From positions 18,274-82,273 of the forward strand of contig LCNZ01000005.1 in NCBI GenBank assembly GCA_001002325.1: DNA of 64,000 nt. Reading direction: 5' to 3'. How positions within the stretch are numbered: position 1 is the first letter of the stretch; every line of letters starts with the position of its first letter. The notes under the pieces were generated by a model. It was not told where the DNA came from. It saw only the letters and a program-made list of their open reading frames with translations, and ran no database searches. The position numbers were made by a program, and so were the translations under genes. Source of the DNA: Candidatus Amesbacteria bacterium GW2011_GWB1_47_19. Lineage in GTDB: Bacteria > Patescibacteriota > Microgenomatia > CAZETR01 > Amesbacteraceae. Positions 6,521 to 21,802 of this stretch are shown in pieces.

Positions 6521-6925
6521 TCATTTCAATTCCGCCGGGCGGAACTTGTAGCCGTATATTAACATTCCCCGTTCATCGCCGTCCTGTCTGAGGCGGCGGG
6601 TGACCATTTCCACCGGAGTACCTATTTCCACGGGTTCTTTGCCCAAATCAGTAAGTTGGGCCGTCACTAAAGGGCCTTCCGCAAGTTTAATTAGGGCCAC
6701 CACATAGGGGGCGTTCTCCTCAAATCCGACCGGAGCATCATATACAGTGGTAAAAGAATATACTTCTCCCATACCGGAAAACCGGTACGGGGTCTCGGCT
6801 GTGTTTTTACAATAGGGACATATATCCCGGGGAGGAAAAATTTTAGTCTCACAGTGAGGGCAAATTTCACCGATCAGTTTGTACCGCTGGTTTTTCAGGC
6901 GCCAATGGCGGGGGATCTCCATCAT
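6521..6925 (-). CDS. DUF35-like Zn-ribbon plus OB-fold protein
   Basis: CxxC...CxxC zinc ribbon (CPHC, CPYC) followed by an OB-fold segment. This is the pattern of DUF35_N/DUF35 proteins that normally partner thiolase/HMG-CoA synthase. No such partner is present in the window. Confidence 0.65.
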   Translation of the reverse strand: MMEIPRHWRLKNQRYKLIGEICPHCETKIFPPRDICPYCKNTAETPYRFSGMGEVYSFTTVYDAPVGFEENAPYVVALIKLAEGPLVTAQLTDLGKEPVEIGTPVEMVTRRLRQDGDERGMLIYGYKFRPAELK

Positions 6926-7049
6926 CTGTTAGACGAAAAACCGAATATAAACCCACGGCAGGGTTGACAGATAAGACAATCAGAGTTAAGATGTGACCAC
7001 ACTCTTGTAACAGAGAGTGGAGATGACCCGCAAGGGAAATCTCACGAAA

Positions 7050-7078
7050 AGCCCGACCGCAAGGCCGGGTTTTTCAAA
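7050..7078. terminator. GC hairpin with flanking T/A runs, probable terminator downstream of tRNA-Leu(TAG)
   Basis: The sequence aagcccgaccgcaaggccgggttttt forms a stem-loop followed by a U-run. Read on the minus strand it follows the tRNA. Confidence 0.35.
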
Positions 7079-7080
7079 TG

Positions 7081-7161
7081 TGTCGGAGAGAGGAGTCGAA
7101 CCTCCATGGGTTACCCCACAGGTTCCTAAAACCTGCGCGTCTGCCATTTCGCCACTCCGAC
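7081..7161 (-). tRNA. tRNA-Leu (anticodon TAG), type II long variable arm
   Basis: Cloverleaf folded by hand. Acceptor is gtcggag/ctccgac, anticodon stem caggt/acctg with loop tttagga, and T-loop ttcgact. Confidence 0.75.
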
Positions 7162-7244
7162 GCGGATACGCTCATATCGGAAACCTCTTTCCTTTCGCTT
7201 TCGCTCAAGGTTTCTCCGATATATCTCGCTATGCTCGCTATAAA

Positions 7245-7287
7245 GCGCGCGCCTGCCTGCCGGCAGGCAGGTCTGCCAGTTCCGCCA
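7245..7287 (-). repeat. orphan tRNA-Leu 5' fragment interrupted by a 20-bp palindrome
   Basis: gcgcgc + CCTGCCTGCCGGCAGGCAGG (7252-7271) + tctgccagttccgcca. The last segment matches nt 1-23 of tRNA-Leu(CAG) at 9617-9700, not the adjacent tRNA-Leu(TAG). Confidence 0.6.
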
Positions 7288-7316
7288 TCGCCGCCCGTAA
7301 TTTGAGTATATTTTAC

Positions 7317-7358
7317 CAAAAAAAAGCCCCGGCTCCTGCCCGATGCCGAGGCTTTTTG
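7317..7358. terminator. bidirectional rho-independent terminator candidate
   Basis: An A-run, then gccccggctcctgcccgatgccgaggc hairpin, then a T-run. It lies downstream of the minus-strand methyltransferase gene. Confidence 0.4.
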
Positions 7359-7411
7359 GAAATTCCACCGTCCCGATTTTCATCGGAACCGCGGAACCTG
7401 ACGGGATTGTA

Positions 7412-8173
7412 CTATGATAGCGGATTAATGTCAACTCTATGGGATAATATAAACAGACTGGGACCAAAATAAACATGGGAAAGAAGCGGTTGGGAAAAAT
7501 ACTCCAGGATTAACAGCAGATGTCGGGGAAGAAATTTTTTAAGCTTTTGATAACGAAAATTGGATACGGAAAGGACGGTATCGACAAAAAACCCTGACCT
7601 TCGAAGTGATTTGATGACTGCCAGGGGATGATGATTGACAAAAGGTATAGACATCTTTTTGATGTTTTGGAGACTGCGTTTTTCAAGCGGAGTAAGCGGT
7701 ATCCGGGGACCGAAAAACAAACTGCGGAAACGGGATTTGAAGTTTTGGGAGTTGGCAAATTCCAGGATGAACCGACCACCGGGCGTTAGGAGGCGGTGAA
7801 TTTCGGTAAAGGTGGGTACGAGATCGGGCAAATGATGGGCAACCCGGATTAAGAGAGCCAGGTTTACCGATTGGGGATAAAGACGGATTTTCTGGGCAGA
7901 ACCGGACATAATGAAAATATTTTTATTTTTTTTGAGTTTGATGCGTGCCTGACGGCGGTGGTTCGCCGACGGGTCGACCAGAATAATCCGGGTACAGAAT
8001 TTTGTGAGCAGAGGTTCCAAACGGCCAAATCCTCCGCCAATATCGGCACAAACAGGAAAATTGCTGCCGGACAGTAAACGGTTTAAAGCTACGATTTCAG
8101 CCTGATGTTCGTAATCACGATTTTTCCAGTAATCGAGGTAGGAAAAATCCGGATCGTCGTAATGGTGAGTCAT
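7412..8173 (-). CDS. Class I SAM-dependent methyltransferase
   Basis: Motif I VCADIGGGFGR and motif post-II PGGRFIL. Confidence 0.75.
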   Translation of the reverse strand: MTHHYDDPDFSYLDYWKNRDYEHQAEIVALNRLLSGSNFPVCADIGGGFGRLEPLLTKFCTRIILVDPSANHRRQARIKLKKNKNIFIMSGSAQKIRLYPQSVNLALLIRVAHHLPDLVPTFTEIHRLLTPGGRFILEFANSQNFKSRFRSLFFGPRIPLTPLEKRSLQNIKKMSIPFVNHHPLAVIKSLRRSGFFVDTVLSVSNFRYQKLKKFLPRHLLLILEYFSQPLLSHVYFGPSLFILSHRVDINPLS

Positions 8174-8184
8174 GGGGAAAGCGG

Positions 8185-8754
8185 CTATTCCAAATCAGTC
8201 AAAAATTGGTTGATAGCTTTGGCCCAGGCACCGTCTTTTTCCAGGGAGGGAGGGGTATATTTCGCCATTATTTCCTCGGGTGTATCCAGTCCCTGGTCGA
8301 TATATTTACGTTTCAGGGTTTTGGCGACTGTTTCCATGGCTTCGGGGTAATTTCTGAAGCGGATAACCTGGTCGCCGTAGATGCCATATCCCCAGCAATT
8401 GTGTGACTCTTTGGGAATAATTTTACAGAGGTTGGACTCCTGTCGGGCGATGGCCACCAACAACCGATAATCAAGACGATATTTATCCGAAATGGCAATT
8501 ATCTGATCGGAATACGGTTCCAGAGGTGATCCATATCGGTGAAGATACCTGCGGATTGACAAAGCCCGAGCGTCTGAATAAGTAAATGCTGCGGACAAAT
8601 AGGGGGTGAATTCGGGAGATGAAATTCCCAAGACTTCCGGGGAAAAGGGTGAAGCCGGAACAATTGGCAAAGACATAAAAAGCAGCCTGACCGTGCCAAG
8701 AAACAAAAGGGGTAGCCCCAGGAAAAAAGTGCCTAGCCAAAATATACGGCGCAT
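8185..8754 (-). CDS. hypothetical secreted protein, possible peptidoglycan hydrolase-like
   Basis: N-terminal TM/signal. The QESNLC...NCWGYGI segment loosely resembles the SLT-type catalytic-Glu region. Weak call. Confidence 0.3.
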   Translation of the reverse strand: MRRIFWLGTFFLGLPLLFLGTVRLLFMSLPIVPASPFSPEVLGISSPEFTPYLSAAFTYSDARALSIRRYLHRYGSPLEPYSDQIIAISDKYRLDYRLLVAIARQESNLCKIIPKESHNCWGYGIYGDQVIRFRNYPEAMETVAKTLKRKYIDQGLDTPEEIMAKYTPPSLEKDGAWAKAINQFLTDLE

Positions 8755-8760
8755 AATTTT

Positions 8761-8806
8761 GAGCGGCTAAGGGGAATCGAACCCCTGTCACCCCGCCATG
8801 GCGGGG
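8761..8806 (-). repeat. duplicated 3' 30 nt of tRNA-Gly(GCC) followed by 16-bp perfect palindrome
   Basis: 8761-8790 is identical to 9072-9101. It is immediately followed by CCCCGCCATGGCGGGG (8791-8806). Confidence 0.75.
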
Positions 8807-8816
8807 AGTTCAGCTA

Positions 8817-9065
8817 TTAACAAGTATTACCTAGTAACCGCTTCATGGCATTTCCGCCTTTGTAAGATTTTAGCACTTTTTCTCTTTGTTTAGCTTCGAT
8901 GGGGATGGAATATTCTTCTTTATAAATTAGGATCCACTCCCCTCTCCTGCGAGTTGAAATATTTTGACCACGATTGTGTTCGGATAGACGACGGGATATA
9001 TCGTTGGTACTACCTATGTAATGCCGACCTGAGTAAGTATTTCTGAGAATGTATGTATAGAACAT
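8817..9065 (-). CDS. GIY-YIG nuclease family mini-protein
   Basis: YTYIL...GRHYIGST...RRLSEHN, the GIY-YIG core and Arg/Glu-His motif. 82 aa. Confidence 0.8.
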   Translation of the reverse strand: MFYTYILRNTYSGRHYIGSTNDISRRLSEHNRGQNISTRRRGEWILIYKEEYSIPIEAKQREKVLKSYKGGNAMKRLLGNTC

Positions 9066-9072
9066 TCTAATG

Positions 9073-9143
9073 AGCGGCTAAGGGGAATCGAACCCCTGTC
9101 ATCTCCTTGGCAAGGAGAAGTTCTACCATTGAACCATAGCCGC
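9073..9143 (-). tRNA. tRNA-Gly (anticodon GCC)
   Basis: Acceptor gcggcta/tagccgc, anticodon loop ttGCCaa, T-loop ttcgatt. Confidence 0.85.
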
Positions 9144-9147
9144 AGTG

Positions 9148-9220
9148 TGCCGAGAGCTGGAGTCGAACCAGCATCTGACGCTCTTCAGGCGCCCGCCGTA
9201 ACCACCTTGGCTATCTCGGC
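9148..9220 (-). tRNA. tRNA-Phe (anticodon GAA)
   Basis: Acceptor gccgaga/tctcggc, anticodon loop ctGAAga, T-arm gctggttcgactccagc. Confidence 0.85.
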
Positions 9221-9295
9221 GAAGGAATGAAATGACTGAGCTGAGATACAGCGTAAGTCGTATCTCGGCAAGGAACGAGCTTCAGTTGGATTTTA

Positions 9296-9478
9296 CTACA
9301 TCCGGGGAGGGCTTAAACAGTATCCAGTGCGGTCTCTCCCTTTTTTTAAAAATCTAAAATCTGTATTAAATAGTTTATCAACTTGAGCCGCGGATGGTCT
9401 AATACCTGTATTTTTTTCCACCAAATCTTGAAAATTAGATATTATTTCTTCCCGAAGTTGTTCTTGGGAGGTAGCCAT
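9296..9478 (-). CDS. hypothetical small ORF (60 aa)
   Basis: ORF only. Sits between tRNA-Phe and tRNA-Val. No similarity recognised. Confidence 0.2.
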   Translation of the reverse strand: MATSQEQLREEIISNFQDLVEKNTGIRPSAAQVDKLFNTDFRFLKKGRDRTGYCLSPPRM

Positions 9479-9523
9479 TTATTGATTGTATACCTGGGGT
9501 CAATAGTTGCTGACGCTGTCTGG

Positions 9524-9597
9524 TGGACGATGAGGGACTCGAACCCCCGACCCCCGCTGTGTAAAAGCGATGCTCTAACCAGCTGAGCTAATCGTCC
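9524..9597 (-). tRNA. tRNA-Val (anticodon TAC), CCA encoded
   Basis: Acceptor ggacgat/atcgtcc, anticodon loop ttTACac, T-arm gggggttcgagtccctc, followed by cca. Confidence 0.85.
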
Positions 9598-9616
9598 TGA
9601 GATTATATTACAGCTG

Positions 9617-9700
9617 TGGGCAAGAGAGGACTTGAACCTCCACTCCCTTGCGGGAACAGGCTCCTGAAGCCTGCGCGTCTGCCAGTTCCGCCACTTGCCC
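9617..9700 (-). tRNA. tRNA-Leu (anticodon CAG), type II
   Basis: Acceptor gggcaag/cttgccc, anticodon stem caggc/gcctg with loop ttCAGga, long variable arm, T-loop ttcaagt. Confidence 0.85.
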
Positions 9701-9945
9701 TAGAACTGATTCATGAGCTCCGCAATTATCTCACGTCCGAAACCGGATTTGAAGAATTTCTCAAGATTCCTGGCCTGTATTCTGGTATCGCACTCTTCGA
9801 CGTGAATCAATCGCAACGGCAAATGACCTCTTGTGGAGGGCGATTTACCACTTTCGTGTTGATACAGGCGTCTTTGTAAGTTGTTGGTTATCCCTTTGTA
9901 AATGAATTTATCCCCGTAACTTTGAAGGATATAAACAAAATACAT
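9700..9945 (-). CDS. GIY-YIG nuclease family mini-protein
   Basis: MYFVYILQS...KFIYKGITNNLQRRLYQHE. The stop codon overlaps nt 1 of tRNA-Leu(CAG). Confidence 0.8.
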   Translation of the reverse strand: MYFVYILQSYGDKFIYKGITNNLQRRLYQHESGKSPSTRGHLPLRLIHVEECDTRIQARNLEKFFKSGFGREIIAELMNQF

Positions 9946-9948
9946 GTT

Positions 9949-10073
9949 TGAAGCCTGCGCGCCTGCCTGCCGGCAGGCAGGTCTGCCAGTTCCGCCACTT
10001 GCCCTAGAACTGATTCATGAGCTCCGCAATTATCTCACGTCCGAAACCGGATTTGAAGAATTTCTCAAGATTC
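9949..10073 (-). repeat. direct repeat of 9665-9769 (GIY-YIG 3' end plus tRNA-Leu nt 1-36) with inserted 20-bp palindrome
   Basis: 13 + 92 nt are identical to 9665-9677 and 9678-9769. Perfect palindrome CCTGCCTGCCGGCAGGCAGG at 9962-9981 sits between them. Confidence 0.8.
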
Positions 10074-10194
10074 TTATGAGAAAAATGAATCAATCAAACT
10101 GCTTATATTGATGTACCCAAACCAAAATGTCATATGTCTTACGCGAAAAAAATATAAAATTGTCAATTCATTGGGTATAATTAAGAAAGTAGGA

Positions 10195-10278
10195 GCCGGG
10201 ATGCTGAAACTGGTAGACAGGCATGCTTGAGGGGCATGTGTCAGCAATGGCGTGGAGGTTCGAGTCCTCTTCCCGGCA
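10195..10278 (+). tRNA. tRNA-Leu (anticodon GAG), type II
   Basis: Acceptor gccggga/tcccggc, anticodon stem catgc/gcatg with loop ttGAGgg, long variable arm. Confidence 0.8.
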
Positions 10279-10282
10279 CACT

Positions 10283-10366
10283 GCCGGGGTGGCGAAATGG
10301 TAGACGCAAGGGCCTTAAGAGCCCTCGGTCCAAAAGACCATGCGAGTTCGAGTCTCGCCCCCGGCA
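10283..10366 (+). tRNA. tRNA-Leu (anticodon TAA), type II
   Basis: Acceptor gccgggg/ccccggc, anticodon stem agggc/gccct with loop ctTAAga, T-arm gcgagttcgagtctcgc. Confidence 0.85.
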
Positions 10367-10368
10367 CA

Positions 10369-10764
10369 ATGAGTTTTGAGTGTGTTAATTGTCATTACCT
10401 GGTACGGGAAGGTAAAAGATATGCCGGGACGGAAAACAGAAACCATTGCACGAAATGTTTGTGGTCATTGCATGCGGATTTAAGACCTGGTGACAGAAAA
10501 GCATTGTGCGGAGGAAAAATGAATCCCGCGGGGCTTACTTTTAAGCGGGTGAAAAAAGATAAGTACGGGAAAGAAAAGGTTGGAGAATTGATGCTAGTAC
10601 ACCAATGCGTAAAATGCCTAGAAGTATCAATAAACAGGATTGCGGCGGATGACGACCCGGTGGAAATAATGAATCTCGTAAATTCCGGTTTTTCTGTTGA
10701 AGGAATCAGTGTGCTGGATGAGGCTGACAGGTCGGAAGTACGCAGGCAGCTATTCGGGGTGTAA
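10369..10764 (+). CDS. RNHCP-domain zinc-ribbon protein
   Basis: Literal RNHCTKC signature plus additional CxxC pairs. The ATG lies 2 nt after tRNA-Leu(TAA). The ORF-track upstream extension from 10252 covers two tRNAs and is rejected. Confidence 0.6.
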   Translation: MSFECVNCHYLVREGKRYAGTENRNHCTKCLWSLHADLRPGDRKALCGGKMNPAGLTFKRVKKDKYGKEKVGELMLVHQCVKCLEVSINRIAADDDPVEIMNLVNSGFSVEGISVLDEADRSEVRRQLFGV

Positions 10765-10775
10765 AATTATAAACA

Positions 10776-10848
10776 CGGAGAGTGGCGCAGCTGGTAGCGC
10801 GCATCGTTTGGGACGATGAGGCCCCGGGTTCGAGTCCCGGCTCTCCGA
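10776..10848 (+). tRNA. tRNA-Pro (anticodon TGG)
   Basis: Acceptor cggagag/ctctccg, anticodon stem catcg/cgatg with loop ttTGGga, T-arm ccgggttcgagtcccgg. Confidence 0.85.
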
Positions 10849-10904
10849 CAAAGTTGAGGCGAAGTTTATTTTTAGCGTGAAATGGTTTAGGATATTGTCA
10901 GAGT

Positions 10905-11345
10905 ATGTGGAAAAAATCGTGGGGAGTGTTTGTAGGTGCGGGACTGGTAGCCGGTTTGTTGCCGGTGATGGTCTGGGGGGTTAGTTCCGGAACCAGGACA
11001 CTGTTCTCCACCCGGGCTCAGACACATGAACTGAGATTATGGTGGGAGCCGGCGGAAGCGACCCTGCGGATAGATCAGGCGATGAAATTTAAGCTGATGG
11101 CAAATGTTGAAAGTAAAAACGGAATTCCGGCACTGGAAATGGAATTGGATATCCCCAAGGGGATACTTGTAGCCCCGAAGATTGTCAGATACGGTAAACT
11201 TATCGGTACCTCAGTGGTCGGTGAAGTGGATGTAGTGGCGGTAAACCAGGGAGATTTTTTGATTGGTATCATAGAAGACAAAGTAGTTACCGGCTATCCT
11301 GATATCACCATAATAGCCTCTCCGGTAAAAATCAAAGTCAGGTAA
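10905..11345 (+). CDS. hypothetical secreted protein (first gene of pilin-like operon)
   Basis: N-terminal signal/TM. Ends 4 nt before the next gene. Confidence 0.45.
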   Translation: MWKKSWGVFVGAGLVAGLLPVMVWGVSSGTRTLFSTRAQTHELRLWWEPAEATLRIDQAMKFKLMANVESKNGIPALEMELDIPKGILVAPKIVRYGKLIGTSVVGEVDVVAVNQGDFLIGIIEDKVVTGYPDITIIASPVKIKVR

Positions 11346-11348
11346 AGT

Positions 11349-11795
11349 ATGAAGTTCAAGCCTGCCCTGTCCCTGATCGAATTATTGCTGGTAGTATCGC
11401 TGATCGGCATTCTGTCGCTGCCGGGAGTATTGGGAATAATTAATATCAGAGCCCGCCAGTCACTGGATGTATCTACTAACAAGTTTGCCGAGATTATGCG
11501 ACAAGCCCACATTTTTTCGAGGGAAAACAGAGAAAGTTTGAGTTGGGGAGTAAAAGGAACCGATAAGAATAGTTACCAACTGGTGACCCGGGATGCGACC
11601 AAGACAGTGACAGTCAGGGAAAAGCACAGACTGGAATCGCCGACAGTTTTTATAATTTATCCGTTTGAAGTGTGGTTTGACCAGGGAACGGGAAATACCG
11701 AAATCAACCGGATTTTCATGACCTATGCGTCCAAGGGCGGTACCCGAGTGGTGGGTTTGTCCCCGACCGGTTTAGTAGTTATCGGTATCCTATGA
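11349..11795 (+). CDS. Type IV pilin-like protein (prepilin-type N-terminal domain)
   Basis: N-terminus MKFKPA|LSLIELLLVVSLIGIL is a class III signal. Ala, not Gly, sits at position -1. Confidence 0.7.
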   Translation: MKFKPALSLIELLLVVSLIGILSLPGVLGIINIRARQSLDVSTNKFAEIMRQAHIFSRENRESLSWGVKGTDKNSYQLVTRDATKTVTVREKHRLESPTVFIIYPFEVWFDQGTGNTEINRIFMTYASKGGTRVVGLSPTGLVVIGIL

Positions 11796-12283
11796 AACCC
11801 CGGGCGTTTACAATAATTGAAGTTGTACTGGCGATAACTCTTTTAATCATTTTGGTAACCAGCGTATATCCCCTGGTGGGATGGATGAGAACCAAATCGA
11901 TACGTCTGCAATACGACAGCCAGGCAGCGCTGGTACTTCAGGAAGGGATGGAGGCGGCATACAGCGTTATGATGTCCGACTGGAGCGGCTTTCCTCCCGG
12001 ACCGGGTTATTTTTATCCGATAATTGATGCGTCTTCGGGAACACCAGTCTGGAAGCTGACTGCCGGAATACAATCTAATTATCAGGCCAGGTTTGAAAGA
12101 AAAATACTGATATCCCAGGTATGCCGGAGGCTGGTAACCGGTCAGATGGAAAATACTCCGTGCCAGGCCGATTATCCTGCCGATCCATACAGCCGGAAAG
12201 TTACAACCACCGTAAGCTGGAGGGAATCAGGAAAAACCAAGAGTATTAACGCCCAATTATTAACGGTGAGTATAAACCGATGA
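11792..12283 (+). CDS. Type IV pilin-like protein (prepilin-type N-terminal domain)
   Basis: MKPRA|FTIIEVVLAITLLIIL. ATGA overlap with the upstream gene. Confidence 0.7.
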   Translation: MKPRAFTIIEVVLAITLLIILVTSVYPLVGWMRTKSIRLQYDSQAALVLQEGMEAAYSVMMSDWSGFPPGPGYFYPIIDASSGTPVWKLTAGIQSNYQARFERKILISQVCRRLVTGQMENTPCQADYPADPYSRKVTTTVSWRESGKTKSINAQLLTVSINR

Positions 12284-12726
12284 AGAAGGGAATATCTCTA
12301 ATAGAATTGTTAATTGCCATGGCGCTGGCGGTGTTTGTATTTTTGCTGGTGATATCGATGCTGATGACAATACTAACGGCAAATGCCAGAAGCAGCCGGC
12401 AGGAGACGTTTGAGCAGACAAAAAACGATTTGCAGAGCGAGCTGACAAACGCTGTTAAATGGGGTAAGGATATCAGCTGGTCTTCAGGACAGCTGATCGT
12501 AGACGGTGTAGCGTATTCGAGGATCAGCAATGTGATAATAAAAAACGGACAGTTGTTGACGCCACCGCAAGTCAAAATCACCAACTGGACAATAACCGAG
12601 TTGGGGCAGGGAGATCCGAACATCAGTTTGCGCATGGAAATAGCTATGGAAAACGCAGCTAACAGCAGTATTAAAGACAACATGATTTTGACAGTTACAA
12701 AAAGGCAGACGATCATTGTGAAATGA
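12280..12726 (+). CDS. Type IV pilin-like protein (prepilin-type N-terminal domain)
   Basis: MKKG|ISLIELLIAMALAVFVF. ATGA overlap with the upstream gene. Confidence 0.7.
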   Translation: MKKGISLIELLIAMALAVFVFLLVISMLMTILTANARSSRQETFEQTKNDLQSELTNAVKWGKDISWSSGQLIVDGVAYSRISNVIIKNGQLLTPPQVKITNWTITELGQGDPNISLRMEIAMENAANSSIKDNMILTVTKRQTIIVK

Positions 12727-14021
12727 AAACCATGCGAAATACCAACGGTGTTGCTGTGATGATGCTGGTGCTGGTAGTGTCCATGATAGCGGCTTTTATG
12801 GCCATTGCCTGGCAGTCACGGATTTTATTGGGGGTATACAGGAATAAAGCCCTGTCGGACATTATTGCCGTTTCTTACCATGGGGAGTCCAAGGCCAATG
12901 ACATCCTGGGCAAATTCCTGGGAGATTATCCGGGGGCATTTACTTATAATTTTGAAACTCCATGGGAAGATTTGGGAGACGGAACACAATTGAAAGTCGA
13001 GGGAAAACTGATTGATAATAAGGAAACACTAAATATTACAGCCAAGCGAACGTATGCCAGCACCCAATATCAGGTTACCAGGGAGACGGAAACTTTTTCG
13101 GCGGAAGCTTCGGATGCCGAGATAGTATTTTCGCTGGACTGCACGGGATCCATGGCAGCTGCCGCTTGTGCGGATACAAATATTTGCAATTACCAGCCTC
13201 CCGGGAGTCCGTTTTACGCGATTACCAGGATGGACAAACTGAAAGAGGCCTTGATTGTTTTTCTGGACAAGCTGGAAGCGCTTCCAGGGCATGAAAAAAT
13301 AAAGATCGGACTCTCAGTGTTTACATTAAAGAGCGACTGGATGTATACCAGCTACGCTGCGGACGGAACCCCGACCGGACAGGCAATAAAACCCGATAAT
13401 GCGATATCGTCAGATATTCCGGCTATTAAAAGCGCCGTCAATAACTTTCTGGGAAGAAGCGGTGAAGAGCACAGTATGGCTTGTAAAAAAATTCTGACCT
13501 TTACGAATGTAGGAGGGGGACTGATTTTCGCCCATGACTACCTGAAGACCAGAAAACCACTGGGAAAGAAACAGATAGAAATATTGGTTACCGACGGCTG
13601 GTCTAATCAGAGAACTCCACACGCGGGATGCAGCCAAAATATTTTTTGCCCCGGGGATGCGATTTATTGCAGCGGCTATGGTTATACCTGCCCGGTTCCA
13701 TTACCGAACTGTCAGATGCATGGTTGGGAGTTTACAGCCTGTGCGCTGGCAAGTACCCAGCAACAATGGCAACCTATATCTTTTGCGTCCGATCCCTGGC
13801 CTGTCGGAGTACGTGACCCTGAGGTTGATATGTATACGGTGGGTGTATATTCTGATCCGCCTAATTATATAAATTCGGCATTCACCAATTTTTCAAATAA
13901 GTATTTTCAGAATGATGAGGCTTTTCAATTACCGGTTATATTGTCGGATATTTTTGATGAAATATTAGAAAGTTTTACAGTAATTAATGTTCAGCGACTG
14001 GTACCTTCGCCGATAAGATAA
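12723..14021 (+). CDS. von Willebrand factor type A domain protein with N-terminal TM (pilus-associated adhesin-like)
   Basis: MIDAS motif DCTGSM (DxSxS) and downstream TDG. N-terminal hydrophobic helix. ATGA overlap with the last pilin-like gene. Confidence 0.7.
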   Translation: MKTMRNTNGVAVMMLVLVVSMIAAFMAIAWQSRILLGVYRNKALSDIIAVSYHGESKANDILGKFLGDYPGAFTYNFETPWEDLGDGTQLKVEGKLIDNKETLNITAKRTYASTQYQVTRETETFSAEASDAEIVFSLDCTGSMAAAACADTNICNYQPPGSPFYAITRMDKLKEALIVFLDKLEALPGHEKIKIGLSVFTLKSDWMYTSYAADGTPTGQAIKPDNAISSDIPAIKSAVNNFLGRSGEEHSMACKKILTFTNVGGGLIFAHDYLKTRKPLGKKQIEILVTDGWSNQRTPHAGCSQNIFCPGDAIYCSGYGYTCPVPLPNCQMHGWEFTACALASTQQQWQPISFASDPWPVGVRDPEVDMYTVGVYSDPPNYINSAFTNFSNKYFQNDEAFQLPVILSDIFDEILESFTVINVQRLVPSPIR

Positions 14022-14046
14022 AATGGGTTATAATTCTTCGGGAATT

Positions 14047-14088
14047 GCGGGTGTAGCTCAATGGCAGACCTGCCTGTCGGCAGGCAGG
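14047..14088 (+). repeat. 5' 22 nt of tRNA-Gly(TCC) followed by 20-bp near-palindrome
   Basis: 14047-14068 gcgggtgtagctcaatggcaga is identical to 14341-14362. Then CCTGCCTGTCGGCAGGCAGG at 14069-14088. Confidence 0.75.
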
Positions 14089-14108
14089 GAGCCAGAACTT
14101 TGATTTTA

Positions 14109-14327
14109 ATGAAAAGGTATTTTGTATATATCACCCGCAGTAAATCAACCGGCAGATTTTATACCGGTATGACAAACGACTTGCAAAGAAGGTTAAAACA
14201 GCATAACCGACTAACATCAAATACCCTTGCTACAAGGAAATTGACCGACTTTGAAATTGTTTACAAAGAAATGCAACAAAGCAGAGCAGAAGCAAGAAAA
14301 GTAGAGAGTTTCGTGACAAAATTGTAA
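14109..14327 (+). CDS. GIY-YIG nuclease family mini-protein
   Basis: MKRYFVYITRSKSTGRFYTGMTNDLQRRLKQHN. The ORF-track start at 14061 lies inside the tRNA fragment/palindrome. The ATG at 14109 is preferred. Confidence 0.75.
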   Translation: MKRYFVYITRSKSTGRFYTGMTNDLQRRLKQHNRLTSNTLATRKLTDFEIVYKEMQQSRAEARKVESFVTKL

Positions 14328-14340
14328 AATTCGGTAGCAT

Positions 14341-14411
14341 GCGGGTGTAGCTCAATGGCAGAGCGCCAGTTTTCCAAACTGGTGACGAGGGTCCGATTCC
14401 CTTCACCCGCT
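14341..14411 (+). tRNA. tRNA-Gly (anticodon TCC)
   Basis: Acceptor gcgggtg/cacccgc, anticodon stem ccagt/actgg with loop ttTCCaa, T-loop tccgatt. Confidence 0.85.
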
Positions 14412-14561
14412 CAATAGCGAAATGGTTTTGTGTTTTCTCCAATTTTCCTCAAGAAATCGATCTTTTCCCGAGTTCTAGCCACCATTTTTAGCGTTTTATC
14501 TTTGGCCTGGAAAAAATCATACCGGTAACCGGAGTCGGACCTAATTTGTAGAAAAAATGAG

Positions 14562-15377
14562 TCAGTTTATACTGGAAACTCGCATCCAAATCGGATAATG
14601 GTCAGATAGATTTCCGTATTTTTCGTCAGTTATAACCTTGAATTCTTCTAGTTTTATCAGGTTGTTTCCGAAAGCATAATCTAATCTGAGTATAGGCTCA
14701 TTTACGGGAAGCGGAAATAATTTTGCCGGAACTGTGTCACCTTTTCCTTTACCAAGATCAACAAAACCTGCATTTGTAAGTATTTTCGTTACTTCGCCTC
14801 GTTTCATCTCGTTAAGTGATCCCTTCATACTTTTCATAGGTCCGGGGAATTTACGACCTAATGTCTCTAATTGTTTGTCGGTTTCTGCTAAATCATCATT
14901 ATCAAAGGTGTTTAAATCCCCTGTAATTATCGTTGGAGTGTTTGGGTTGACTAATTTTAATACTGCCTCGATTTGTTTAATTCTAGTATCTTCACTGACA
15001 TCGTCTAAATAGACTGAAAATATATCTATTCCACCAACCTTAGTTCTAATCGCATTTCTGGTAGCAAGCCAAATAGTTTGAATTTCCGTTTCGGCGATTT
15101 GAGAGAAAACAGTAATACCATTGTCATGTCCTTTTGTTACTAATCTTTGATCTTCTAGCTTTACTGTGTGCACGTAGGGGTATCCAAATATTTGTTTTAA
15201 CTCATCTGGTGTAAAAACTTCTGTCCATCTATGGGTATCAACTAAACTGACAATATCTGGGTTCAAATCTTTGATGACACTAGCTAAACCATCAATTCGT
15301 TCAGGTCTTTTTTCTGGGCTGCCATAATCTTTAAAACCACCACTTAAAATATTCCAAGACAAAATTTCTGTTGACAT
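14562..15377 (-). CDS. Endonuclease/exonuclease/phosphatase (EEP) family protein
   Basis: N-terminal SWNIL..GG, a D/N-rich core and C-terminal SDHYPI, all typical of the EEP fold. Start chosen at MSTEIL. Confidence 0.7.
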   Translation of the reverse strand: MSTEILSWNILSGGFKDYGSPEKRPERIDGLASVIKDLNPDIVSLVDTHRWTEVFTPDELKQIFGYPYVHTVKLEDQRLVTKGHDNGITVFSQIAETEIQTIWLATRNAIRTKVGGIDIFSVYLDDVSEDTRIKQIEAVLKLVNPNTPTIITGDLNTFDNDDLAETDKQLETLGRKFPGPMKSMKGSLNEMKRGEVTKILTNAGFVDLGKGKGDTVPAKLFPLPVNEPILRLDYAFGNNLIKLEEFKVITDEKYGNLSDHYPIWMRVSSIN

Positions 15378-21012: not shown

Positions 21013-21407
21013 AGATTAATCGTTTGAGATGTTTAATCATTTCAGCGGTTCCATATACCTTTGTCAGTAGATATTGAGAAAACGGTTCGGGGTTTTTAAG
21101 GTATTTTATAACCATTTCAAAGGGATTTTGTGGAAAGGTTTGCGATTGATCCCAACCAAGTAATTATTATGACACAAGGAGTAACCAGCGAAGAGGTGAA
21201 AGAGAATGCTCAAAAAGTGGCTGAGTTGGTTAAACATAGAGGATACAGGCTACTTACCAGATTGCACGTAGACTTGTGGGGAGCTAAAAGACGGGTTTAA
21301 AGATATGAGGCTAACAGGTTCGAATCTCGTCTTGGGGTGCAATAGTTTGATATGGTTGTCTGAAGCTAAATATTTTAGGGTGGTGTACGGAATGGTTCGA
21401 CGGGAGG

Positions 21408-21698
21408 TTAGGACATCTTTAAAGTGTTTTTCAAAATTTGTTTTAGTTGATTGTGACCGTAGCCACTTTTTAGATATATTTCTCTAGCTTCGGCATCTTG
21501 ACGATTTTGAAAATATTCGTAATGAATTAATTTTAAAGGTCGGCGGGTTTTGGTGGAATCGACTTTGCCTAAATTGTGATCTTGTAGGCGACGCTTTAAA
21601 TCGTTGGTGAAGCCAATATAAAGTTTTAAATCTTTTTGAGATTGAAGGACATAGACGTAGTATTTGTTTGTAAAAACGTCGGACGTTTTTGTAGGCAT
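21408..21698 (-). CDS. GIY-YIG nuclease family mini-protein
   Basis: KYYVYVLQS...LKLYIGFTNDLKRRLQDHN. Confidence 0.8.
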   Translation of the reverse strand: MPTKTSDVFTNKYYVYVLQSQKDLKLYIGFTNDLKRRLQDHNLGKVDSTKTRRPLKLIHYEYFQNRQDAEAREIYLKSGYGHNQLKQILKNTLKMS

Positions 21699-21729
21699 AA
21701 GTTCGGATGTCCCGTCAAACGGGACTATG

Positions 21730-21802
21730 GGTGGATGACGGGTGATGCTCCCGCTACCTCCGCATCCACAGTGCGGCGCTCTACTGATGAGCTACATCCA
21801 CC
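21730..21802 (-). tRNA. tRNA-His (anticodon GTG) with encoded G-1
   Basis: Extra 5' G, acceptor gtggatg/catccac, discriminator C, anticodon loop ctGTGga. The T-loop reads agcatca, which is atypical, so moderate confidence. Confidence 0.65.

Follow-up and report, generated by a model that had tools for sequence, protein, structure and literature searches.

A single-domain GIY-YIG nuclease gene inserted within a tRNA-Gly gene of Candidatus Amesbacteria: a probable minimal, tRNA-restoring mobile element

Introduction

Why should a gene for a lone nuclease domain stand between a tRNA gene and an exact second copy of that gene's 3' end? This question is raised by the tRNA-Gly(GCC) locus of Candidatus Amesbacteria bacterium GW2011_GWB1_47_19, located in a 64-kb stretch of contig LCNZ01000005.1 (assembly GCA_001002325.1, positions 18,274 to 82,273 of the forward strand; 64,000 nucleotides, hereafter the window). 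An open reading frame (ORF) of 82 codons encoding a GIY-YIG domain, ORF1, is bracketed there by tRNA-derived sequence and a 16-nt palindrome. We consider it rather probable that the locus harbors a minimal, tRNA-restoring, nuclease-driven and homing-like selfish element that lives inside tRNA genes, with a mechanism of movement that we infer. The components of the element are the gene of a GIY-YIG nuclease with a single domain, a GC-rich hairpin that is conserved and marks one end, and, at the opposite end, a partial copy of the target tRNA. This architecture recurs at many tRNA species in many phyla, the duplicated segment being either the 5' or the 3' part of the tRNA. Coordinates given below are positions in the window, and handles such as L003 designate related loci or contigs retrieved from other assemblies.

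Results and discussion

An insertion within tRNA-Gly(GCC)

The features of the locus are the following.

9072-9143, minus strand: functional tRNA-Gly(GCC) (ARAGORN; Rfam tRNA model, 72.6 bits; synteny with empty sites)
9071-9101, minus strand: direct repeat copy 1, within the functional tRNA-Gly (family D8)
8817-9065, minus strand: ORF1, GIY-YIG domain only, 82 aa (ORF call and PF01541 match)
8807-8841, minus strand: possible diverged 5' half of tRNA-Gly, GCGGTTACTAGGTAATACTTGTTAATAGCTGAACT (overlaps the last ORF1 codons)
8791-8806, no strand assigned: hairpin or palindrome CCCCGCCATGGCGGGG, 16 nt (sequence reading and motif search)
8760-8790, minus strand: direct repeat copy 2, displaced ancestral 3' end of tRNA-Gly (family D8; same position as the 3' end in empty sites)
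8791-9101 (equivalent drawing, 8760-9070), minus strand: whole insertion, 311 nt (repeat spacing of 311 nt; orthologous empty sites)

Along the minus strand, the order is the intact tRNA-Gly, which is one of 15 tRNA genes detected by ARAGORN in the window, a 6-nt spacer, ORF1 on the same strand with its ATG 6 nt past the tRNA 3' end, the possible diverged 5' half, the 16-nt hairpin and the original 3' part. The sequences 8760-8790 and 9071-9101 form an exact direct repeat of 31 nt (100% identity), which comprises the 3' 30 nt of tRNA-Gly (variable loop, T arm and 3' acceptor strand) and the next base. By our own arithmetic, the chance recurrence of an exact 31-mer in 64 kb is about 4e-10. The hairpin CCCCGCCATGGCGGGG, found once in the window, directly adjoins repeat copy 2, and the latter ends 6 nt upstream of the start of a 189-aa gene (8754).

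Orthologous loci were fetched from metagenomes with this downstream gene (8185-8754) as query. In more than 12 relatives (L092-L097 and L100-L106, 50-60% protein identity), its start codon lies 0-8 nt after a tRNA-Gly(GCC) nearly identical to that of the window, with tRNA-Phe(GAA) just upstream in most of these loci. Neither a GIY-YIG ORF nor a hairpin is present at the tRNA-Gly locus in any of them. Because these ORF-less loci keep tRNA-Phe, tRNA-Gly and the 189-aa gene contiguous, the 311 nt represent a true insertion. In the window, the 5' 42 nt of tRNA-Gly are at their ancestral place, 3 nt past tRNA-Phe, and the orphan 3' fragment is 6 nt from the 189-aa gene. This makes both outer junctions ancestral. 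The insert lies within tRNA-Gly(GCC), between positions 42 and 43, i.e. where the anticodon arm meets the variable loop. The functional tRNA-Gly owes its 3' 30 nt to the copy on the element side, and the original 3' end remains as a dead fragment capped by the hairpin. An earlier note on this DNA had described the 30-nt copy, the palindrome and the 82-aa ORF, all of which we recover, with a repeat extending to 31 nt. It had also compared the arrangement to an att-like duplication at the tRNA 3' end, with a GIY-YIG gene as sole cargo and no integrase. The empty orthologous sites agree with an insertion, but they place it in the interior of the tRNA gene instead of at the 3' end, and the likeness to att sites is geometric only.

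In the displaced tRNA-Gly copy, CCCCGCCATGGCGGGG stands where the 17-nt anticodon arm would be, preceded by GAACT (tRNA positions 21-25) and followed by positions 43 onward. The sequence before the hairpin may be a diverged 5' half of tRNA-Gly, as suggested by this GAACT and by a GCGGTTA that could pair with TAGCCGC. For the resulting pseudo-tRNA, structure prediction gives a T arm and an acceptor-like stem in addition to the hairpin (-31.4 kcal/mol, z = -2.2). A comparable layout of a diverged 5' half is seen at other loci with the tRNA upstream of the ORF. Rfam did not detect a tRNA in 8759-8846, and the T arm alone gave a weak match to the tmRNA clan. No promoter-like site was found on the ORF1 strand within 8600-9700, and the counts of the promoter and terminator scans were not above chance.

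The GIY-YIG proteins

A profile search of all six reading frames of the window gave four GIY-YIG mini-ORFs, designated ORF1 to ORF4, with PF01541 scores of 54.8 (ORF1, E = 1.2e-14), 52.4, 47.5 and 60.9 bits for a cut-off of 22.6. All four adjoin a tRNA gene on the same strand, and extra copies of tRNA segments in the window are confined to the loci of GIY-YIG elements and relics. The proteins, 72-96 aa long and mutually 35-40% identical, correspond to the catalytic domain alone, and no other domain is present in ORF1. Residues Y5, Y16, G18, R26, H30 and E62 are invariant in an alignment of 29 sequences; we take them to be the positions expected for a GIY-YIG active site, by analogy with I-TevI. 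The catalytic set of the superfamily, namely the Tyr of GIY, the Tyr-x-Gly of YIG and an Arg, a His and a Glu, is thereby represented. The AlphaFold2 model of ORF1 (predicted local distance difference test, pLDDT, of 86) has an alpha/beta GIY-YIG fold, closest to UPF0213 protein BH0048, then to the nuclease domain of Slx1 and then to the catalytic domain of I-TevI; the top structure matches in PDB have probabilities of 0.57-1.0 but weak E-values of 3e-3 to 0.25. A sequence search of PDB gave the same relatives. Judging from the model, the nuclease fold appears nearest to the structure-specific Slx1/UPF0213 branch. NCBIfam and PADLOC gave no more specific curated family and no defence assignment.

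The clade profile matched 14,315 clusters (50% identity) among 1.84 billion representatives, nearly all of them small proteins of less than 130 aa. Some database gene calls (P0027, P0038, P0039 and P0016) run upstream through the hairpin, which gives N-terminal extensions resembling CPAKGGE. Two longer representatives, P0108 and P0109 (205-214 aa), contain two matched stretches each and are possibly read-through products of tandem units.

Recurrence at tRNA genes of many phyla

A search for the ORF1 clade with one genome per species gave 489 relatives, of which the best 80 were kept; the sample thus defined represents mainly the ORF1 clade. These best 80 of 489 come from Patescibacteria, Omnitrophota, Bacteroidota, Ignavibacteria, Zixibacteria, Acidobacteria and others. 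A tRNA gene on the same strand is present within 90 nt of the ORF in 72 of the 80 loci, usually within 15 nt, for a chance expectation of about 1% (a rough estimate assuming one tRNA per 20 kb). Distant relatives (38-51% identity) are likewise linked to tRNA genes. Two types of insertion can be distinguished among the 72 loci. In 53 of them the stop codon of the ORF adjoins the 5' end of the tRNA, and in the other 19 the tRNA comes first, as for tRNA-Gly(GCC) of the window. Most loci contain a partial copy of the same tRNA beyond the ORF, namely its 5' part in the ORF-first type and its 3' part in the tRNA-first type. Both types occur within one protein clade at 65-70% identity. Relatedness of the proteins goes along with tRNA identity: for 57 of the 72 proteins, the nearest neighbour is encoded next to a tRNA gene of the same amino-acid specificity (permutation mean 14.4, maximum 27).

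These data bear on the idea that the locus is what remains of an integrase-made island or prophage at a tRNA 3' end, reduced to one gene, with the palindrome being an unrelated terminator or dispersed repeat. The direct repeat of the tRNA 3' end has indeed the geometry of attL and attR. However, no tyrosine or serine recombinase is encoded in the 311-nt insert, whose sole ORF is the GIY-YIG gene, nor in the 72 related loci, and it is this one-gene layout of about 300 nt that recurs. Furthermore, the duplicated segment is the 5' part of the tRNA in 53 of the 72 loci, the crossover lies at an arm boundary and the hairpin replaces an arm. As for the hairpin, it lacks a T-run and is not a dispersed sequence, with a single occurrence in the 64-kb window. 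We regard such an origin as extremely improbable and close to refuted.

Two contigs from Candidatus Yanofskybacteria, L174 and L175 (1120-1690), present a particular arrangement. The true tRNA-Ser(CGA) stands between the arms of a 13-bp inverted repeat, GTCAACAGCACAG and CTGTGCTGTTGAC, with hairpin-bearing pseudo-copies on both sides, and ARAGORN calls the downstream one a second tRNA-Ser.

Sister elements and relics in the window

The other GIY-YIG loci of the window and the relic are listed here.

9616-10073, minus strand: sister element at tRNA-Leu(CAG) (family D1, a 93-nt exact repeat; motif search; PF01541)
9616-9700, minus strand: tRNA-Leu(CAG)
9700-9945, minus strand: ORF2, 81 aa, ending on the first base of tRNA-Leu(CAG)
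9949-9960, minus strand: copy of tRNA-Leu positions 25-36
9962-9981: hairpin CCTGCCTGCCGGCAGGCAGG, 20 nt
9981-10004, minus strand: copy of the 5' 24 nt of tRNA-Leu
10005-10073, minus strand: 69-nt copy of the ORF2 3' end
14046-14412, plus strand: sister element at tRNA-Gly(TCC) (families D3 and D6; PF01541)
14046-14068, plus strand: copy of the 5' 22 nt of tRNA-Gly(TCC)
14069-14088: hairpin CCTGCCTGTCGGCAGGCAGG, 20 nt, nearly the same as CCTGCCTGCCGGCAGGCAGG
14089-14095, plus strand: GAGCCAG, resembling tRNA-Gly(TCC) positions 23-29
14109-14327, plus strand: ORF3, 72 aa
14341-14412, plus strand: tRNA-Gly(TCC)
21408-21698, minus strand: ORF4, 96 aa (PF01541), 30 nt downstream of tRNA-His
21711-21727: hairpin GTCCCGTTTGACGGGAC, between ORF4 and tRNA-His
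21729-21801, minus strand: tRNA-His
7247-7287, minus strand: decayed ORF-less copy (family D4, 41 nt identical to 9957-9997)

At tRNA-Leu(CAG), the sequences 9677-9769 and 9981-10073 form a perfect 93-nt direct repeat, made of the 5' 24 nt of the tRNA and the last 69 nt of ORF2, which brackets a unit of 304 nt. The 3' end of ORF2 contains a promoter-like sequence, TTCAAA, 17 nt and TG-GATAAT (9725-9753, minus strand), about 25 nt upstream of tRNA-Leu(CAG). It is duplicated with the repeat (10029-10057, minus strand), and the regional count of such sites is no higher than chance. ORF3 stops just past the region of the catalytic Glu, without the C-terminal K-S-x-x-G helix found in related proteins, and may, to judge from its sequence, be inactive. 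The ORF4 locus is atypical, since no tRNA repeat of at least 12 nt was found there. Downstream of ORF4, ACAGGTTCGAATCTCGTCTTGGGGTGCA (21316-21343, plus strand) resembles the T arm and 3' acceptor end of a tRNA and may be another fragment; ARAGORN makes no call at this place. The relic at 7247-7287 consists of an CCTGCCTGCCGGCAGGCAGG hairpin (7252-7271) and a 5' fragment resembling tRNA-Leu(CAG) (7272-7287), 86 nt upstream of tRNA-Leu(TAG) (7080-7161). An intact ORF is found at the orthologous position in L120, and a similar relic in L103. Ten of the 15 tRNA genes of the window are clustered in 7.4 kb (7080-14412); three of these ten bear GIY-YIG elements and one a relic.

Variation, decay and arrays

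Two independent assemblies, L003 and L005, are otherwise 100% identical to the window but do not contain the 304-nt unit (the hairpin, most of ORF2 and one copy of the 93-nt repeat) at the tRNA-Leu locus. Three other assemblies have the unit. As the 93-nt repeat is shorter than the k-mers used for assembly, we consider this a real presence/absence polymorphism, which can be read from the contigs as either gain or loss. The allele of L003 and L005 keeps a 69-nt tail of ORF2 and for this reason is not a naive site. Another form of reduction is seen at about 1290-1360 of L120, where a 5' copy of tRNA-Gly(GCC), the hairpin CTCCGCCATCGGCGGGG, 7 nt of the 3' part and 5 further nt precede the intact tRNA, without any ORF; this is a minimal or fully decayed element. 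In general, ORF-less relic copies are rare and look decayed. Amplification is found as well. In L085, a true tRNA-Pro precedes a tandem array of 2.3 identical 359-nt units, and a pseudo-tRNA with the hairpin as D arm closes each unit. In this contig (1021-1970, from a Prolixibacteraceae) and in L083, L084 and L088, hairpin-bearing pseudo-tRNAs are called extra tRNA-Pro(CGG) by ARAGORN. Loci of this sort will inflate the tRNA counts of annotated genomes.

It could be asked whether we are dealing with a non-mobile host module that stays beside tRNA genes and serves in tRNA-gene maintenance, in transcript processing or in defence against integrating phages, the hairpin-bearing tRNA fragment being a leader, terminator or decoy. 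Several observations would fit, namely the breadth and age of the family (14,315 clusters, and paralogues in one genome that are only 35-40% identical), the strict co-orientation and tight adjacency of ORF and tRNA, and the capacity of some pseudo-tRNAs to fold like a tRNA (the predicted fold in the window, the ARAGORN calls in L085). However, a host module is difficult to reconcile with orthologous loci devoid of the element, presence and absence within one population, decayed ORF-less and truncated copies, tandem arrays and the occupation of different tRNAs in different genomes, and there is no match to known defence families. We judge a host function of this kind to be quite unlikely.

The hairpin and the proposed mechanism

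A hairpin with the consensus YCCCGCC, 2-5 nt, GGCGGGR, of which CCCCGCCATGGCGGGG is a member, was found in the partial tRNA copy at 65 of the 72 related loci. We counted 103 hairpins in 28 kb of ORF flanks versus 23 in the 165 kb of remaining sequence, i.e. 3.7 per kb within 200 nt of the ORFs versus 0.14 per kb elsewhere in the same loci, a difference of about 26-fold. The outer base pair co-varies (C-G in 50, T-A in 37). In the Gly, Ile, Thr and Glu elements, a hairpin of 15-18 nt exactly substitutes for the 17-nt anticodon stem-loop, and homology to the tRNA resumes beyond it. In other clades the hairpin is found in the D loop (Tyr, Leu), in place of the D arm (Pro, Bacteroidales), as a tandem pair in the anticodon loop (Ser-GGA) or in the T arm. 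A fixed strand for the hairpin, from its C-rich 5' arm, was considered and rejected: a perfect stem is identical on both strands, so that its orientation cannot be inferred.

It is with the protein clade, and not with the target tRNA, that the sequence of the hairpin varies. Relatives of ORF1 go with YCCCGCC..GGCGGGR, ORF2-like proteins of other genomes, next to tRNA-Leu, with a CCTGCC..GGCAGG hairpin (CCTGCCTGCCGGCAGGCAGG), and ORF4-like proteins with a GTCCCGATA..TATCGGGAT hairpin. This substantiates the view, put forward in the earlier note, of a family with different pairs of hairpin and target; the 20-bp palindromes at the Leu and Gly(TCC) loci, CCTGCCTGCCGGCAGGCAGG at 7252 and 9962 and CCTGCCTGTCGGCAGGCAGG at 14069, really are distinct from CCCCGCCATGGCGGGG. 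That the hairpin might instead be a generic repeat occurring without GIY-YIG genes, which the note had suggested checking, is contradicted by its enrichment near the ORFs and the rarity of ORF-less copies. A dispersed palindrome, such as a repetitive extragenic palindrome (REP) or a miniature inverted-repeat transposable element (MITE), was likewise rejected, with hairpins concentrated at the ORFs and a single exact CCCCGCCATGGCGGGG in the window.

The two sides of the hairpin differ in their resemblance to the tRNA. In loci with the tRNA upstream of the ORF, left and right identities are 11.1 versus 9.0 of 12, a clear asymmetry. The asymmetry is weak for the opposite type (9.5 versus 9.1 of 12), which is partly due to loci that have several hairpins and blur the comparison. 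In several tRNA-Gly elements the copy beside the host flank is identical to the host tRNA at 22-25 of 25 positions, and the short piece past the hairpin is more diverged. In L029, L028 and L022, this piece fits the tRNA-Gly of another host better than that of its own, which suggests that it travels with the element.

In the mechanism that we propose for a homing-like element, the ORF would be expressed from the transcription unit of the tRNA. Its nuclease would break the cognate tRNA gene at an arm that forms a stem-loop. Repair would then proceed by copying from the allele that bears the element, and the two tRNA halves would provide the homology arms. The hairpin would be the cis-site of the element, most likely docking the nuclease and also making the displaced tRNA copy non-functional. 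The host tRNA gene is essential and probably single-copy, and we propose that insertion in such a gene is tolerated because an intact tRNA is rebuilt. In a variant closer to classical homing, the arm missing from the element's own tRNA copy would be where the nuclease cuts the empty gene; this variant accounts for the tandem arrays and for junctions placed precisely at arms.

Several points weigh against this homing-like mechanism. Neither cleavage nor transfer has been observed, and movement is wholly inferred. The classical variant fails to explain how a domain of 80 aa recognises different tRNAs, or why the intact adjacent tRNA is spared. Recognition of a long site in the tRNA gene is hard to picture, because the proteins have 72-96 aa and no DNA-binding domain. 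In the displaced copy the arm is replaced by the hairpin, yet an intact tRNA gene persists beside the element. Because of this intact tRNA, a filled allele would probably not be immune to a tRNA-targeting nuclease, unlike in classical homing. Close relatives are absent from 2.9 million viral contigs, which gave distant partial matches only, so that there is no evident vehicle for transfer between cells. The four copies in the window are only 35-40% identical, which speaks against a recent burst and for lineages that look old and largely vertical. The polymorphism at tRNA-Leu could be plain loss by recombination between the 93-nt repeats. Finally, the similarity of 8807-8850 to the 5' half of tRNA-Gly is, as homology alone, not significant (690 of 5000 shuffles are as good, p ~0.1).

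A different possibility, tentative in our opinion, is that the element is mobile but that its nuclease acts on its own hairpin, the target being picked by homology. An excised or copied form carrying a contiguous pseudo-tRNA (5' part, hairpin, 3' part) would then act like attP. Recombination 5' of the hairpin would give the ORF-first type, and recombination 3' of it the tRNA-first type, to which the tRNA-Gly(GCC) insertion of the window belongs. The same hairpin is indeed present in elements of tRNA-Gly, Ile, Thr, Tyr, Ser, Pro, Glu and Lys, at varied tRNA positions, and changes only with the protein clade. In addition, this possibility would accommodate both insertion types in one clade at 65-70% identity, tRNA homology on both sides of the hairpin, near-identity to the host on the host-tRNA side with divergence or likeness to another host's tRNA on the other side, a fold closest to that of structure-specific Slx1, and unit loss between direct repeats as seen in the population. 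However, no circular junction or free form was seen, the homology of 22-36 nt is marginal for RecA-type recombination, and on the far side the homology of many elements is limited to 7-12 nt. Moreover, a cut at the hairpin in standard schemes of break repair would lead to loss of the hairpin or of the whole element and not to spreading, and no path to spreading has been worked out. A bolder and unlikely extension is that the GIY-YIG protein and its cognate hairpin are a complete, previously unrecognised transposition system, in which a stem-loop (DNA or RNA) is recognised and the tRNA-derived sequence selects the target. In its extreme version, the transcribed hairpin and tRNA fragment may act as a guide RNA, as in TnpB/IscB systems.

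Comparison with known systems

The nearest precedent for the homing-like element that we favor is SegB of phage T4, described as a GIY-YIG homing endonuclease of the free-standing kind, located in a cluster of tRNA genes (PMC2330249). Like SegB and the free-standing GIY-YIG genes of T4-like phages, the elements are found outside introns and among tRNA genes, would be selfish cassettes (presumably via break repair) and occupy loci that vary in presence. The nuclease gene lies outside any intron or intein and is absent from otherwise homologous loci, as is the case for Seg genes. The differences are considerable, however. Seg proteins have about 200 aa or more with DNA-binding domains, in contrast to the catalytic domain alone of 72-96 aa here. 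The element sits inside a tRNA gene, rebuilds this gene with the copy it carries and has a conserved terminal hairpin. It is also chromosomal, in many bacterial phyla, without close relatives in viral contigs.

The trick of an element-borne copy of the displaced tRNA segment, which makes the insertion harmless and leaves a direct repeat, is shared with prophages, islands and integrative and conjugative elements that target tRNA genes. Unlike them, the present elements encode no tyrosine or serine integrase, measure only about 300 nt, duplicate the 5' part more often than the 3' part (53 versus 19), have their junction at an arm boundary and replace an arm by a hairpin.

As to the nuclease, the closest relatives in sequence and fold are UPF0213 proteins (BH0048, 1zg2; EF2693, 1ywl) and the nuclease domain of Slx1, which are also single GIY-YIG domains. 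The cuts made by Slx1 in branched and stem-loop DNA depend on structure and not on sequence. There are differences as well: no function has been assigned to UPF0213 proteins, and Slx1 requires Slx4 and a RING domain. To our knowledge, linkage to tRNA genes has been reported for neither.

With IS200/IS605 transposons and TnpB/OMEGA systems the elements have in common a very small size, ends defined by a hairpin and a target read from the flank, and the logic of nuclease homing is akin to TnpB-assisted retention. An IS200/IS605-type transposon was nevertheless rejected, as neither an HUH (Y1) transposase nor TnpB is encoded, only one end has a hairpin, the target duplication is long (22-36 nt) and the target is a gene for a structured RNA. 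Group I introns with homing genes in the anticodon loops of bacterial tRNA genes are also selfish nuclease-bearing inserts that leave the tRNA functional. In the elements, however, the tRNA is kept by DNA duplication and not by RNA splicing, and Rfam detected no ribozyme. A group I intron was rejected on the same scan (6900-14600, E <= 1), which gave only tRNAs and matches at chance level.

The element may be viewed as a cross between a free-standing homing endonuclease gene, with SegB as nearest precedent, and a tRNA-targeting integrative element. Having neither a DNA-binding domain nor an integrase, it lacks defining features of both. In the full-text literature, subscription-only papers being outside this coverage, we found no published account of GIY-YIG genes tied to bacterial tRNA genes together with tRNA fragments or hairpins. 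There is a real chance that the element will be a new class once its chemistry is known.

Concluding remarks

Genes for tRNAs are the classic landing sites of integrase-bearing islands. Here the same trick of a spare tRNA piece is found in about 300 nt with one nuclease domain of 80 aa, which raises the question of how a domain-only nuclease finds a specific tRNA gene. The pair formed by this very small protein and its hairpin has a directly testable specificity. Should the pair turn out to be a transposition system, it would be a new class of DNA transposon whose mobility enzyme is the smallest known and whose target is chosen through homology or structure, not by a DNA-binding domain of the protein. 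The elements account for many tRNA gene fragments and odd tRNA calls, such as the hairpin-bearing pseudo-tRNAs called tRNA-Pro or tRNA-Ser by ARAGORN. They also suggest, in concrete terms, what some of the uncharacterised small GIY-YIG (UPF0213-like) proteins may do. If our proposal is true, minimal mobile elements of this class would be widespread (14,315 protein clusters), with members in Patescibacteria, Bacteroidota, Omnitrophota and other phyla.

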